Of a stretch of DNA of 24,000 nucleotides, positions 8,500 to 11,776 are shown piece by piece. The position numbers and the translations under genes were made by a program. The stretch's first letter is position 1, and every line of letters begins with the position of its first letter. Location: contig NZ_JAFBEP010000020.1 of the NCBI RefSeq assembly GCF_016908775.1, positions 13,245-37,244 of the forward strand. Direction: 5' to 3'. This DNA is from Defluviitalea raffinosedens. Its GTDB lineage: Bacteria > Bacillota > Clostridia > Lachnospirales > Defluviitaleaceae. Under the pieces are notes generated by a model that did no database searches, was not told the origin of the DNA, and saw nothing but the letters and a program-made list of their open reading frames with translations.

Positions 8500-8904
8500 T
8501 TATTTATGCTTTAGTCTGACTTTTAGCTCCTTTACTTTTGTTTCTATTCTTGAGATTACTTTTTTAAATTCGTCATCACCCTTGCCTGTGGGATCATCCA
8601 GTCCCCAATCTTCCCTGTGTTTACATGGAAGGTAAGGGCATTCCACATTGCATCCCATTGTAATAACAATATCTACCGGAGGGATTTCATCAAGCAGCTT
8701 TGAATATTGGGTTTTCTCCATATCTATATCATATAGCTTTTTCATTAGACGCACAGCATCCTGATCAATTTGGGGTTTTGTTTCTGTGCCGGCAGAGTAG
8801 CTTTCAAATATATCTCCTGCAAAATGCTTACCAAGCGCCTCAGCTATTTGGCTTCGACATGAATTATGAACACAAATAAATGCGACCTTAGGTTTATTAC
8901 TCAT
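8500..8904 (-). CDS. arsC: Arsenate reductase, thioredoxin-coupled LMW-PTP type
   Basis: The 134-aa ORF has the P-loop CVHNSCRSQ and downstream Cys residues in GCNVECPYLPC, matching the pI258 ArsC-type Cys triad layout. Its start overlaps the acr3 stop through the sequence ATGAGTAA. Confidence 0.9.
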   Translation of the reverse strand: MSNKPKVAFICVHNSCRSQIAEALGKHFAGDIFESYSAGTETKPQIDQDAVRLMKKLYDIDMEKTQYSKLLDEIPPVDIVITMGCNVECPYLPCKHREDWGLDDPTGKGDDEFKKVISRIETKVKELKVRLKHK

Positions 8905-9973
8905 TGGCCATGCCTACTTTCTGTCTTTTTACCGGAAACCAGTGCCTTGTATTATTTGCTATCTTTACAAGTATCAACATAACAGGCACTTCTGTAAGAA
9001 CCCCTACAATGGTAGCAAGTGCAGCCGGACTTTCTGTACCAAACAAAGCAATCGCAACGGCAACTGCCAGTTCAAAGAAGTTAGATGCACCAATCATACC
9101 GGCAGGTGCTGCTATATCATGTGAAAGCTTTATAGCTTTGCTTGCCAGATAAGCAATGAAAAAGATAAGAAAAGTCTGAATAATCAACGGTATAGCAATT
9201 AATACAATGTGCAGTGGATTATTCAGAATTACATCTCCCTGGAATGAAAAAATTATGATTAATGTTAACAATAAACCTATAGTAGTGATATTTCCAAATT
9301 TCGGGACAAAACTCTTTTCAAAATAATCAAGTCCACGCTTTTTTATAACATAATTACGTGTAATTGCCCCACCAGCCAATGGAATGACAACAAACAATAC
9401 TACGGATAGAATAAGAGTATCCCATGGTATGGTTACGCCGCCTACACCTAGTAGAAATGCAACTATAGGCGTGAAAGCTATGAGAATTATAAGATCATTT
9501 GTTGCTACTTGTACGACAGTATATGCTGCGTTGCCTTTTGTCAAATAACTCCATACAAACACCATTGCTGTGCATGGTGCCGCTCCAAGAAGTATTGCTC
9601 CCGCAAGATAGTCTTGTGCCAATTCTTCCGGAATTAGAGATTTAAAAATTACAAAGAAAAACAGCCAAGCAATGCCGAACATGGTAAAAGGCTTTATCAA
9701 CCAGTTGACTATCCATGTAACAAAAAGGCCCTTAGGATTCTTGCCTACATTTTTGATGCTGGCGAAATCCACCTTCATCATCATGGGGTAAATCATCAGC
9801 CATATCAAAATAGCGATGGGAATGGAAACCTGCGCATAATCAAATTGACCTAAAAAATTAGGAACAGCGGGCAGGTATTTTCCGATGAGTACACCGACAA
9901 TCATGCACAGGGCTACCCACAAGGTCAGATACTTTTCAAAAAAGCCAATACCTGCATTTTTTTCATTACTCAT
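8897..9973 (-). CDS. acr3: Arsenite efflux permease, ACR3 family
   Basis: The sequence MSNEKNAGIGFFEKYLTLWVALCMIVGVLIGKYLP...IYPMMMKVDF... is a roughly 10-TM protein typical of ACR3/ArsB (BART superfamily). I place the start at ATG 9973 because GGAGGGTGA lies 7 nt upstream. The maximal ORF begins at 10000 and would overlap hgcB. Confidence 0.9.
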   Translation of the reverse strand: MSNEKNAGIGFFEKYLTLWVALCMIVGVLIGKYLPAVPNFLGQFDYAQVSIPIAILIWLMIYPMMMKVDFASIKNVGKNPKGLFVTWIVNWLIKPFTMFGIAWLFFFVIFKSLIPEELAQDYLAGAILLGAAPCTAMVFVWSYLTKGNAAYTVVQVATNDLIILIAFTPIVAFLLGVGGVTIPWDTLILSVVLFVVIPLAGGAITRNYVIKKRGLDYFEKSFVPKFGNITTIGLLLTLIIIFSFQGDVILNNPLHIVLIAIPLIIQTFLIFFIAYLASKAIKLSHDIAAPAGMIGASNFFELAVAVAIALFGTESPAALATIVGVLTEVPVMLILVKIANNTRHWFPVKRQKVGMANE

Positions 9974-9990
9974 AATAATCACCCTCCATT

Positions 9991-10284
9991 TCAGCAGCAT
10001 TCCTCACCGCTTGAACAACCACAGCTCGGCTCACTTCCTGTAAGCCAACCCATAATCACGGCAAAGGCACATCCCACTCCGGCGTCAACAGTGATAGCGT
10101 TTGCGGGACAATTTTTCGCGCAAGCGCCGCACTCCATACAATGGTCTTTATTTTCAATCTGTGCTTTCTTTTCGTTCACACTGAAAACTCTATGGGGGCA
10201 AACTTCGGCGCATCTTCCGCAGCCGATACATTTTTCAGCAGACAAACGAAGCGTTGCAACATTTTTCAAATATCTATGTTTCAT
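9991..10284 (-). CDS. hgcB: HgcB-type 2x[4Fe-4S] ferredoxin with a C-terminal Cys tail (partner of HgcA)
   Basis: The 97-aa ORF has two cluster motifs, CIGCGRCAEVCP and CMECGACAKNCP. The CMECGA signature is at 10123-10140. The C-terminus reads CGCSSGEECC, with the vicinal Cys codons at 9994-9999. AGGAGG sits 6 nt upstream of the ATG, and the gene starts 11 nt after the hgcA stop. Confidence 0.88.
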   Translation of the reverse strand: MKHRYLKNVATLRLSAEKCIGCGRCAEVCPHRVFSVNEKKAQIENKDHCMECGACAKNCPANAITVDAGVGCAFAVIMGWLTGSEPSCGCSSGEECC

Positions 10285-10295
10285 AGCGTCCTCCT

Positions 10296-11384
10296 TTATA
10301 CCCAGATACTATTTATCAGCAACAATACAAGCCCTACTACTAATGAAATAGCAATAAGCGGCACAGCTATTTTCATTTCTTTGATAACACCGGAAAAGGA
10401 TGTATATGTTGACGAACCTGTAAAATTCATCGCCAAGAAAGCCGACAATGACGGCAATACCAGCAAATACCCTATGTCAAGAAGCGAGAATCCGGGAACA
10501 AACCAGCCGCTATACCAGGTAAATCCCAACGTCCAAATTAACCCCAGCAGCCAGCCCTTCCATGCGAAGGCACTGCCGGGAATCACGGGAAGAAGCAAAG
10601 GCGTTATTACAGTTCCCGTTACCACAGCACCCGAATAAGCAATGAAATCCGCTAACCCGAAAGGTCTTGCAGCGAACAGGTTCAGGAGAAACATTACACC
10701 AAAAACCATCAACGAAGACTTTGCGGCAGCCACCAGCTCCATTGGAGTGAGAACCAATCTGTCCCACATCGTAAATTTCACGGTACGCATTTCTTCTGTG
10801 GCTTTGAAGCCTGAATCGAGAAAAGCCTTTATATCCTTCGCCCTCACAGGCCCATAAATCACAGTAAATCCGGTTTGTTTTGTCACTTCATGGGCGCTCA
10901 CACCGGGCGCACCCAACTGCGGCAGCACCAATTTCCTGTGGGATACTATCTCAGACAGCCCGGTTTTCGATATTCGGCTTACTATTTCATCGGTTCCGAA
11001 TGTGCCTTTACCGGCGGCGCACCAGACATTGATGCCTTTAGTATCAAGTATCAGAATCCAGCAATCCAGGCCTGATAACTCTTTCCTCAAGACATCAAAT
11101 GTCAGCTTGTAGTTCGCGCTTACCAACACAGGAGATGTATGATCAGGCTTACCTATAGCGTAGAGCCCCGGATTTATCTTATAATTCATCCTGCCAATAC
11201 CCCAGCGCACCTTCCACGCTCCGAGCATGTCTTTGAAGTGAAGATTTGTTGAAACCACAGGCACGCTACCTTTAAGGGTATGGATCACACCGGTTACCCA
11301 TTTATCATTCTTATCATACGGCGTAATGGACTCAGTGCTGCAACAACTACTGGCCGAGCAGCAGCATGATTTTTCTTTACTCAT
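10296..11384 (-). CDS. hgcA: HgcA-type membrane-anchored corrinoid (cobalamin-binding) methyltransferase protein
   Basis: The maximal ORF runs 10296-11414 (372 aa). The likely start is ATG 11384, which overlaps the arsR stop as ATGAGTAA; ATG 11390 is the alternative. The soluble domain reads LVSANYKLTFDVLRKELSGLDCWILILDTKGINVWCAAGKGTFGTDEIV...LVLPQLGAPGVSAHEV, with the NVWCAAGK motif at 11007-11030. About five C-terminal TM helices follow. An N-terminal SCCCSASSCCS tract is present. Confidence 0.9.
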   Translation of the reverse strand: MSKEKSCCCSASSCCSTESITPYDKNDKWVTGVIHTLKGSVPVVSTNLHFKDMLGAWKVRWGIGRMNYKINPGLYAIGKPDHTSPVLVSANYKLTFDVLRKELSGLDCWILILDTKGINVWCAAGKGTFGTDEIVSRISKTGLSEIVSHRKLVLPQLGAPGVSAHEVTKQTGFTVIYGPVRAKDIKAFLDSGFKATEEMRTVKFTMWDRLVLTPMELVAAAKSSLMVFGVMFLLNLFAARPFGLADFIAYSGAVVTGTVITPLLLPVIPGSAFAWKGWLLGLIWTLGFTWYSGWFVPGFSLLDIGYLLVLPSLSAFLAMNFTGSSTYTSFSGVIKEMKIAVPLIAISLVVGLVLLLINSIWV

Positions 11385-11712
11385 TTTCATCCCATCCTTT
11401 ACAACATCCTGCATCTTCTTGGCAGATGCAATTTTCTTTTTCGGAGGTAATGTTACAGAGAAATCGCATTATTCTGCTGACAGTATTTGTGTCCAATGAG
11501 TAATACGTCCACTTACCTTGTTCTCTGCCCTTGACCAGCCCGCATTCACACAGGATCTTCATGTGGTGAGACAGCGTGGATTGGGACATATCGAATTTCT
11601 CTAAAATCATACAAGCGCAAAGTTCCCCACAGGAGAGCATATCCACAATCATGGCCCTCTTAGGATCCCCCAGCGCCTTGAATACTTTAGCATATTCCAA
11701 ATAGTCTTCCAT
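11377..11712 (-). CDS. arsR: ArsR/SmtB-family metal(loid)-responsive transcriptional repressor
   Basis: The 111-aa ORF has a wHTH (FDMSQSTLSHHMKILCECGLV). The metalloid-site-like motif SCGELCAC is at 11611-11631. A Cys-rich C-terminus reads ENCICQEDAGCC. The RBS GAGGTG lies 5 nt upstream of ATG 11712. Confidence 0.88.
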   Translation of the reverse strand: MEDYLEYAKVFKALGDPKRAMIVDMLSCGELCACMILEKFDMSQSTLSHHMKILCECGLVKGREQGKWTYYSLDTNTVSRIMRFLCNITSEKENCICQEDAGCCKGWDENE

Positions 11713-11733
11713 ATCGGCACCTCAAATCTATAA

Positions 11734-11776
11734 ATATCGATATGATCATTATATGCGCCAAATCGAAGAGTGTCAA
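11734..11776 (-). promoter_or_regulatory. Consensus sigma-A promoter with overlapping palindromic operator, upstream of arsR
   Basis: On the minus strand TTGACA (11776-11771), a 17-nt spacer and TATAAT (11753-11748) form the promoter. A perfect 10-bp palindrome ATATCGATAT (11743-11734) follows immediately. It overlaps an 8-bp palindrome ATGATCAT (11749-11742), so the dyads cover the predicted start site. Confidence 0.7.

Follow-up and report, generated by a model that had tools for sequence, protein, structure and literature searches.

Why should a gene pair for mercury methylation lie within an arsenic resistance operon, and what does this position imply for its expression and its function? 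Both questions are raised by a 24,000-nucleotide (nt) stretch of the Defluviitalea raffinosedens genome (NCBI RefSeq assembly GCF_016908775.1, contig NZ_JAFBEP010000020.1, positions 13,245 to 37,244 of the forward strand; this whole stretch is referred to as the window), whose minus strand carries, head to tail from 11712 to 8500, open reading frames (ORFs) for ArsR, HgcA, HgcB, ACR3 and ArsC. We consider it probable that these genes form an ArsR-controlled five-gene operon in which an hgcAB cassette has its place in a mobile ars operon of the Bacillota and is expressed under arsenic control. The locus bears on the control of hgcAB and on the purpose of HgcAB, both of which are debated in mercury biogeochemistry.

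A link between hgcAB and arsenic genes is already on record, and the novelty that the preliminary description claimed for it cannot be upheld (McDaniel et al. 2020; Gionfriddo et al. 2022/23; Peterson et al. 2025). The gene maps in Fig. 6 of McDaniel et al. (mSystems 2020, PMC7438021) place acr3, arsC, arsM and arsR immediately beside hgcAB in diverse metagenome-assembled genomes (MAGs), and Fig. 4c of Peterson et al. (ES&T 2025, PMC11984097) places arsR with acr3/arsC near hgcA; the latter article also associates, in a lake metatranscriptome, the presence of arsR with lower hgcA transcription. Of 31 confirmed methylators considered by Zhang et al. (ISME Commun 2023, PMC10349881), 14 have arsR upstream of hgcA at a distance of no more than three ORFs. 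In Pseudodesulfovibrio mercurii ND132, arsR and hgcA are co-transcribed and ArsR2 regulates hgcAB (Gionfriddo et al., bioRxiv 10.1101/2022.10.17.512643; AEM 2023). According to this preprint, hgcAB of ND132 is induced by arsenic but not by Hg, ArsR2 responds to S-adenosylhomocysteine (SAH) besides As, ND132 formed no mono- or dimethylarsenicals, and arsenic-driven horizontal gene transfer of hgcAB is posed as a question; ArsR2 has a four-Cys site (C47, C49, C86 and C88) and occurs only in hgc+ Desulfovibrionaceae, always upstream of hgcAB. ND132 and P. hydrargyri BerOc1 (Goni-Urriza 2020) resemble the window in having a co-oriented ArsR/SmtB-family gene directly upstream of hgcAB, but the ND132 locus is without other ars genes, whereas in the window the unit continues past hgcB with acr3 and arsC. 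In the text of these papers, the ars-flanked neighbourhoods are given at the level of gene maps, with no mention of junction overlaps, an operator, nucleotide-level homology to ars operons lacking hgcAB, or decay of acr3 and arsC; these emerged from the analysis of the window. Our literature search, with figures and many journals outside its reach, returned nothing on this Acetivibrio-type five-gene operon, its operator, its cassette boundaries or its decay. What the locus appears to add is a canonical CxC ArsR site, nucleotide-level exchange with ars operons, and repeated decay of acr3/arsC beside an intact arsR-hgcAB.

Gene content and junctions

The first gene, arsR (11377..11712, minus strand, as are all features of the operon), encodes an ArsR/SmtB metalloregulator of 111 amino acids (aa) with a CGELCAC motif and a Cys-rich C-terminus (CIC...CC); the protein scores 58.5 bits against Pfam HTH_5 and 97.8 bits against NF033788 (cut-off 55). 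It is followed by hgcA (10296..11384), which encodes the 362-aa corrinoid protein of the mercury methylation pair and matches the equivalog NF040863 over residues 41-360 (493.9 bits; cut-off 275). The cap-helix NVWCAAGK (N119-V-W-C122-A-A-G-K126) is invariant in our HgcA alignment; the motif N(V/I)WCA(A/G)GK, with its Co-ligating Cys, reportedly goes back to the work of Parks et al. in 2013. HgcA is related to CFeSP (Pfam CdhD), is membrane-anchored, has no S-adenosylmethionine (SAM)-methyltransferase domain and begins with a Cys-rich N-terminal tail (MSKEKSCCCSASSCC; window 11320-11384). Its partner, the product of hgcB (9991..10284), is a 2x[4Fe-4S] ferredoxin of 97 aa with two CX2CX2CX3CP motifs (CIGCGRCAEVCP and CMECGACAKNCP) and a C-terminal CC pair (EECC terminus) that matches the equivalog NF040864 (136.4 bits; cut-off 99). 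By family assignment, HgcA and HgcB are the mercury methylation pair, and Hg(II) methylation activity is predicted for them.

The two remaining genes are of arsenic resistance type. The acr3 gene (8897..9973) encodes an ACR3-family arsenite efflux permease of 358 aa that matches the equivalog TIGR00832 (390.3 bits; cut-off 282.8) and is 88-96% identical to proteins named ACR3 by their sources. The arsC gene (8500..8904) encodes a 134-aa arsenate reductase of the low-molecular-weight protein tyrosine phosphatase (LMW-PTP) type (Pfam LMWPc, 62.9 bits), which scores below the NCBIfam ArsC equivalog cut-offs (TIGR02691, 72.1 vs 174.3 bits; NF010053, 87.1 vs 215 bits). All 14 of its 14 PDB matches are arsenate reductases, with pI258 ArsC among the best. 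It reads a CX5R loop (C11-VHNSC-R17-S18) plus C84/C88; C88 is aligned with C89 of pI258 ArsC, and C84 lies one position off C82 of that protein. The Staphylococcus pI258 operon, arsR-arsB-arsC, is autoregulated and encodes a thioredoxin-coupled ArsC of LMW-PTP type. The window resembles it in having the repressor gene first and an ArsC of this type, and differs from it in that the pump is ACR3 rather than ArsB and hgcAB lies between regulator and pump.

The junction spacings, in operon order, are -8, +11, +17 and -8 nt. The arsR stop codon (TAA, 11379-11377) overlaps the hgcA ATG at 11384, with 8 nt (ATGAGTAA) shared, and the same 8 nt join the end of acr3 to the arsC ATG at 8904 in a second such overlap. 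The 11-nt gap between hgcA and hgcB holds AGGAGG; the 17-nt gap between hgcB and acr3 holds GGAGGGTGA and is counted to the acr3 ATG at 9973, which was chosen because homologues begin MSNEKN or MSKE (the longest ORF begins at 10000). Upstream of arsR itself is the Shine-Dalgarno sequence GAGGTG at 11723..11718. All five ORFs and the junction sequences thus read as in the preliminary description, which had given the order arsR-hgcA-hgcB-acr3-arsC with tight junctions. The recurrence of one octamer at two junctions, to which it had drawn attention, loses its weight: ATGAGTAA merely encodes the start of Met-Ser-Lys/Asn, an N-terminus common to HgcA, Acr3, ArsC and DUF2703.

The arsR/hgcA overlap is kept, and the hgcA-hgcB gap conserved, in relatives; the junction architecture as a whole is preserved in at least 12 of them. 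Translation of hgcA and arsC would be coupled to that of the preceding gene by the 8-nt overlaps, and each of hgcB and acr3, which begin 11 and 17 nt past the preceding stop, would use a Shine-Dalgarno site of its own. All five genes, where intact, are under purifying selection (dN/dS 0.05-0.2; 0.10-0.15 for hgcA); an omega of 0.75 for arsC of locus L084, an alignment artefact of an internal stop, was left out. The G+C content is 47% in the hgcA region (window 10001-11000), compared to 36-39% in acr3-arsC (8001-10000) and 34-38% in the upstream flank (12001-19000). This contrast along the operon is consistent with a mosaic origin.

Exchange with ars operons, decay and the role of HgcAB

Acr3 proteins of many Bacillota are 90-96% identical to that of the window; for those from genomes without hgcAB, among them aerobes that do not methylate mercury, the figure is 90-91%. 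The latter genomes carry arsR-arsD-arsA-DUF2703-acr3-arsC beside a large serine recombinase. At the nucleotide level, window positions 9990..8472 are 86% identical to the ars operon of L087 (Ruminiclostridium herbifermentans), and the homology begins at the base after the hgcB stop; the acr3-arsC segments of L087, L089 and L090 are 86% identical to that of the window in nucleotides and 90% in amino acids, and the window ArsC is 90% identical to the ArsC of this mobile Bacillota operon type. In L028, whose HgcA is 88% identical to that of the window, homology to L087 flanks hgcAB on either side (81% over promoter and arsR; 87% over acr3-arsC). The ArsR of L028 is a hybrid of an L087-like body and a window-type CCKGCDENE end, and the recombination junction is therefore placed inside the 3' end of arsR. 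The nesting of hgcAB within an ars operon, as it was first described, is in this way borne out by homology to operons that do not contain hgcAB.

The slot that hgcAB occupies can also be named. Both the L087-type operons and those of the L093 type (L093, L096 and L135) lack hgcAB and have arsD-arsA and DUF2703, which the window does not. The latter type resembles the window in its promoter, operator and ArsR lineage and in the overlap of the arsR stop with the next start: the start of DUF2703 overlaps the arsR stop via AATGAGTAAA, as hgcA does. Because homology flanks hgcAB and DUF2703 uses this same overlap, hgcAB is, on these comparisons, a cassette in the DUF2703 (or arsD-arsA-DUF2703) slot of an otherwise conventional mobile ars operon. 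The flanking arsR and acr3 sequences can act as homology arms moving hgcAB between ars operons, and the cassette would shuttle by homologous recombination in these flanks. The direction of cassette capture is one that we infer.

The exchangeable arsR-hgcAB-acr3-arsC module, as delimited by its homology edges, spans 8472..11809. On the left, homology with unrelated hosts and with L150 starts approximately 30 nt upstream of the -35 box; on the right, it ends at 8472 in comparison with L087-type ars operons and at 8542 in comparison with L150. Relative to same-locus relatives, the module is approximately 91% identical in nucleotides, whereas the upstream flank is 97.6-100% identical. Carriage of hgcAB by plasmids was considered and rejected, as HgcA had no match in the 72,556 plasmids of PLSDB.

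Association of hgcAB with ars genes is not peculiar to the window. A GTDB scan with one genome per species gave 597 HgcA loci, of which the best 80 were analysed, with neighbourhood genes classified by tblastn; because this sample is biased toward relatives of the window HgcA, the proportions that follow are not global frequencies. In 36 of the 76 loci with enough sequence, the gene immediately before hgcA is arsR. In 12/67, hgcB has acr3 and/or arsC after it on its own strand (both genes in 8), and four further loci have acr3 or arsC directly upstream. The identical five-gene order is found in L008, L009, L011, L012, L028, L061 and L042 and in the metagenome contigs L085 and L150, and other orders are arsR-acr3-arsC-hgcAB (L037), arsR-arsC-hgcAB (L055) and arsR-hgcAB-acr3 (L036). 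The association recurs in several arrangements and in independent genomes and contigs, and is more than chance; the neighbourhood survey that the preliminary description had proposed thus returned recurrent co-occurrence of arsR, acr3 and arsC with hgcA.

Some loci in this set carry additional genes. In L049 (5454-9750), a MAG labelled Cyanobacteriota, arsR, an ArsP_1-family permease gene (PF03773, 245 bits), hgcA, hgcB, acr3 and arsC run in one direction, and a weaker ArsP_1-family match lies between arsR and acr3-hgcAB in L057. ArsP-type permeases export methylarsenite, and the L049 permease is the only hint tying hgcAB to methylated arsenic. Elsewhere, hgcB is followed by a gene for a CoA-disulfide-reductase-like flavoprotein with a rhodanese domain and then a distant SBF/Acr3-like transporter (L016, 8448-11224), by a large serine recombinase gene (L030, 8823-10505), or by a phage-type integrase gene on the opposite strand (L083, 9711-10799).

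Among close relatives (HgcA at least 70% identical), arsR, hgcA and hgcB are apparently intact: the tblastn alignments are without internal stops, except for the ArsR matches of L013 and L015 (one). The arsR gene with its promoter/operator and the 8-nt overlap is retained even where acr3 and arsC have been lost. One route of loss can be read from a 9-nt direct repeat, ATGAGTAAT, which in the window stands at the acr3 start (9965-9973) and the arsC start (8897-8905), both on the minus strand: in L084 (9412-9423) and L086 (2509-2520), acr3 is precisely deleted between these repeats, leaving arsC behind the acr3 ribosome-binding site, and arsC of both loci has a nonsense codon at position 88. L084 and L085 share an identical HgcA protein (P0004) despite differing in the presence of acr3, which dates the loss as recent. 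Only acr3 remnants are left in L001, L005, L006 and L013, and acr3 is truncated in L010; fragments of arsC adjoin the integrase gene in L083, arsC of L149 is reduced to 75 aa, and several further close-relative loci have no trace of acr3 or arsC. Since arsR-hgcAB is still intact where acr3 and arsC have time and again decayed, HgcAB does not appear to need the adjacent pump and reductase; the persistent unit, as far as these loci indicate, is arsR-hgcAB.

This pattern also bears on whether arsenic control of hgcAB is of any consequence. It is possible, if rather unlikely, that hgcAB is only hitch-hiking, with ars operons as its landing pad or vehicle, arsenic control as a by-product, and a native role elsewhere, for example in one-carbon or halomethane chemistry. 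The module is found in unrelated genomic contexts, recombinase genes adjoin it in L030, L083 and L087-L090, the arsR and acr3 alleles are mosaic relative to hgcAB, and hgcAB is kept where acr3 and arsC decay; a 2026 preprint proposes halomethane dehalogenation by HgcAB. A mere passenger is, however, difficult to reconcile with the retention of arsR, promoter/operator and overlap in every close relative: since arsR stays intact after the loss of acr3/arsC, regulation by ArsR is apparently selected. In addition, hgcAB is tied to ars genes in several gene orders and through no fewer than three ArsR lineages, which suggests repeated selection for the association.

A more direct tie would exist if HgcAB itself acted on a metalloid. 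ArsM is a SAM-dependent arsenite methyltransferase encoded in ArsR-controlled ars operons; HgcA is likewise a methyltransferase, probably under ArsR, but is a corrinoid protein without a SAM domain. HgcAB might perform Cys-on corrinoid methyl transfer to thiol-bound As(III) or Sb(III), independently of ArsM, or might replace ArsD, ArsA or DUF2703. In the strongest form of this proposal, HgcAB would be an arsenic/antimony-handling module whose tail receives the soft metal(loid) and which methylates As(III)/Sb(III), with mercury methylation as a side reaction. We regard both forms as very doubtful. They draw on the position of hgcAB in the exact DUF2703/arsDA slot with the same overlapping start, on the ArsP_1-family permease between arsR and hgcA in L049, and on the N-terminal CCCSx3-4CC tail that HgcA and DUF2703 have in common (DUF2703 in this slot starts MSKCCCSSENCCGQ in L135, L093 and L096, and MNKSDAGCCSCGSGCCGQ in L087). 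The tail is the less telling for being widespread: 51 of the 80 HgcA loci have an N-terminal tail with at least three Cys, 31/38 with arsR and 20/42 without, and because the latter also have it, the tail is not a specific marker of ars linkage. As such a marker it was rejected, being a general HgcA feature confounded by phylogeny. In the HgcA homologue P0092, the Cys-rich tail is expanded to a long repeat; our literature search found no account of an HgcA N-terminal Cys tail.

Two further properties count against a metalloid role: Acr3 exports As(III)/Sb(III) and not methylated species, and acr3 and arsC are dispensable beside hgcAB in relatives. The hgcAB mutant of ND132 is reported, in the abstract of that study, as more As(V)-sensitive (bioRxiv 10.1101/2022.10.17.512643), but ND132 made no mono- or dimethylarsenicals. 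The earlier suggestion that the native role of HgcAB concerns arsenic is accordingly hard to maintain, given this result and the loss or inactivation of acr3/arsC beside intact arsR-hgcAB. Were it true, it would amount to an ArsM-independent anaerobic methylation route.

Promoter, operator and regulator

Turning to the proposed control by ArsR, a sigma-70-type promoter, TTGACA-17-TATAAT (11748..11776), is the sole 12/12 match in the 4.4 kb scanned. Because the total of promoter-like matches equals the shuffle expectation, the evidence for this promoter is its conservation in relatives and not the scan; 14 related loci have kept both hexamers. When the 140 nt upstream of arsR were aligned from 15 loci, conservation set in abruptly at cATATTGACA, with unrelated sequence farther upstream. 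The conserved block comprises the -35 box, a TTCGATTTG motif in the spacer (11759..11767), the -10 box, ATATCGA(T/A)AT immediately after it, and the GAGGTG Shine-Dalgarno sequence; ATATCGA is present in all window-type promoters. Just downstream of the -10 box, over the expected transcription start, lies the perfect palindrome ATATCGATAT (11734..11743), whose only perfect copy in the 24-kb window this is, and which has a TCGAT core in common with TTCGATTTG. Promoters of the L028/L087 type carry related ATCGATAT motifs. Judged by this alignment, the block is a phylogenetic footprint of promoter and operator, with ATATCGATAT as the candidate ArsR operator, TTCGATTTG as a candidate half-site, and both as probable binding sites of ArsR.

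At the other end, a hairpin resembling an intrinsic terminator (8376..8418; hairpin at 8418..8385 with a 13-bp stem, then a U-run) lies approximately 80 nt past the arsC stop and forms in both the minimum free energy and centroid structures. A single transcript would run from the promoter to this hairpin (8418..8376) and terminate there. The consensus promoter at 11776-11748 and the downstream terminator candidate had both been pointed out in the preliminary description; the former is confirmed as a 12/12 match conserved in relatives, and the hairpin and T-run of the latter are present, though terminator-like sites, like promoter-like ones, are in total no more numerous than chance predicts. 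Leader RNA structure at 11750..11700 is no better than that of shuffled sequence, and an Rfam scan gave no match inside the operon.

Tight spacing could in principle reflect packing alone, with hgcAB and/or acr3-arsC served by promoters of their own, and a 10/12 promoter-like site inside arsR (11495..11468) and a weak terminator-like site inside acr3 (9068..9047) would fit such a division. We think this very unlikely: gaps of -8, 11, 17 and -8 nt leave no room for promoters or terminators, the internal matches are no more frequent than in shuffled sequence, the site in acr3 has a poor T-tail, and the junction architecture is conserved across relatives. Both internal sites were set aside as chance-level on the basis of the shuffled totals. 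The sequence, with one conserved promoter and internal terminator-like sites that do not convince, agrees in full with a single co-transcribed unit, and operon structure with ArsR control is well supported as a prediction.

The cysteines of the window ArsR are C28, C32, C34, C55, C57, C86, C95, C97, C103 and C104. Neither C32 nor C34 varies among hgcA-linked and plasmid ArsRs, and in the alignment the two fall on the ELCVC As(III) site of E. coli ArsR. The Cys-rich C-terminus (CICQEDAGCC..., window 11377-11450, minus strand) is a lineage-wide feature, with or without hgcAB, additional to the CxC pair and to CEC at 55-57. The closest plasmid ArsRs (50-55% identical) head arsR-arsD-arsA-acr3-arsC operons. 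A metagenome scan for the window-type promoter/operator detected it in 57 contigs, and ArsRs 70-84% identical to that of the window head 14 arsR-hgcAB loci behind this promoter. The same promoter and ArsRs in the same range of identity also head loci without hgcAB, namely arsR-DUF2703-acr3-arsD-arsA-arsC (L093, L094, L096 and L135), arsR-acr3-... (L110, L127, L137, L140 and L147), arsR-arsD-arsA (L105) and arsR-arsC (L139). In an ArsR tree, hgcA-linked and ars-only proteins are interleaved, and at least three lineages precede hgcA. Because the same lineage and promoter head purely arsenical operons, and the two groups interleave in the tree, the window ArsR is by all indications an ars-operon repressor and not a dedicated hgcAB regulator like ND132 ArsR2, from which it is set apart, with only the ArsR2 description as the measure, by its canonical CxC site and by a lineage that heads operons lacking hgcAB. 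The invariant CxC pair and this lineage agree with the metalloid-sensing ArsR originally proposed.

In the mechanism that we favour, an ArsR dimer would sit on the TCGAT-containing operator, over the transcription start at ATATCGATAT and in the spacer at TTCGATTTG, and block the promoter. As(III) or Sb(III) would be bound by the thiolates of C32/C34 (plus C28), and As(III)-dependent release of ArsR from the operator is predicted; the operon would be induced by arsenic, and the methylmercury-forming pair expressed under arsenic control alongside arsenite efflux and arsenate reduction. That the repressor instead senses another signal (Hg(II), Cd(II)/Zn(II), SAH or redox/persulfide) and the operon is not arsenic-inducible might be suspected from the unusual Cys-richness of ArsR, from the response of ND132 ArsR2 to SAH as well as As, and from Zn/Co sensors such as CzrA being the closest solved structures, but is highly improbable in view of the arsenic-only operons (DUF2703-acr3-arsD-arsA-arsC) under the same ArsR lineage and promoter, the invariant CxC pair at the position of the R773/E. 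coli As(III) site, the lack of these cysteines in the aligned segment of CzrA, and the failure of Hg to induce hgcA in ND132.

Several observations weigh against an arsenic-controlled five-gene operon. The window protein has no equivalent of C37, which in E. coli ArsR is the third As(III) ligand, and carries the Firmicute-typical C28 instead; that C28 is an As(III) ligand is an assumption. The 10/12 promoter-like site at 11495..11468, which overlaps poorly conserved codons of arsR, could allow ArsR-independent expression of hgcAB. Identity to same-locus relatives breaks approximately 600 bp before the promoter; this break could reflect recombination or a chimeric assembly, although the operon falls entirely to one side of it. 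Finally, because ND132 ArsR2 differs from the window ArsR in its Cys arrangement and responds to SAH, ND132 is a precedent and not a direct homologue.

Genomic surroundings and biological meaning

The operon is flanked on one side by cobalamin genes (CbiC, a CobO/BtuR-type adenosyltransferase, CobQ, CobD/CbiB, an aminotransferase and a BtuF-like binding protein) and on the other by pstS-pstC-pstA-pstB-phoU-phoP-phoR; these gene sets span 1547-8065 and 15328-23918, all on the minus strand. Corrinoid supply and phosphate/arsenate uptake next to the operon are thematically suggestive. Next to hgcAB in the best 80 GTDB loci, no counterpart of the LytTR/histidine kinase, pst, cob or btu proteins occurs, and synteny of the flanks is limited to the same-species metagenome contigs L084, L086, L150 and L151; the neighbouring cobalamin and phosphate genes were rejected as parts of the system because this synteny is absent from other hgcAB loci. 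No cobalamin riboswitch scores above the Rfam threshold in the window. A c-di-GMP-I riboswitch (RF01051; 14195-14281, minus strand; 93.7 bits, cut-off 35) precedes a LytTR response regulator gene (14043..13294) by approximately 150 nt; the gene for its histidine kinase comes next, and the arrangement suggests that the riboswitch controls this two-component system.

Two irregularities were noted in these flanks. A SpoOB-type/GHKL histidine kinase gene (11939-13281, minus strand) is split into two overlapping ORFs of 343 and 118 aa; the orthologues in L084 and L150 are intact (452 aa). The split, around 12250-12400, coincides with a drop in identity to L084 from approximately 100% to approximately 90%, and may represent a recombination breakpoint or a chimeric join in the assembly, or the gene may be a pseudogene. 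At 16783/16784, the window is without 580 bp relative to L084, to which it is otherwise 99.9% identical there. The loss, either a genuine deletion or an artefact of the assembly, shortens the genes for a FecCD-family permease (16744..17418, minus strand; 224 vs 334 aa) and an ABC ATPase (16242..16715, minus strand; 157 vs 253 aa), both of which belong to a BtuFCD-like transporter.

As an example of the published link between hgcAB and arsenic, the locus is clean and intact: its ArsR is of the canonical As(III) type, its promoter/operator is conserved, and acr3-arsC is complete. Because the regulator of ND132 is atypical and no ars genes are adjacent to it, this locus would be the better genetic test bed. 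Current thinking is not overturned by these results. They point to a route of horizontal transfer for hgcAB, namely homologous recombination via the common arsR/acr3 flanks of mobile ars operons, which would serve as its landing pads. They also constrain the function of HgcAB, which would not need the arsenic genes, since arsR-hgcAB is retained where acr3 and arsC decay. In this clade of the Bacillota, exposure to arsenic or antimony may turn on the capacity to form methylmercury.

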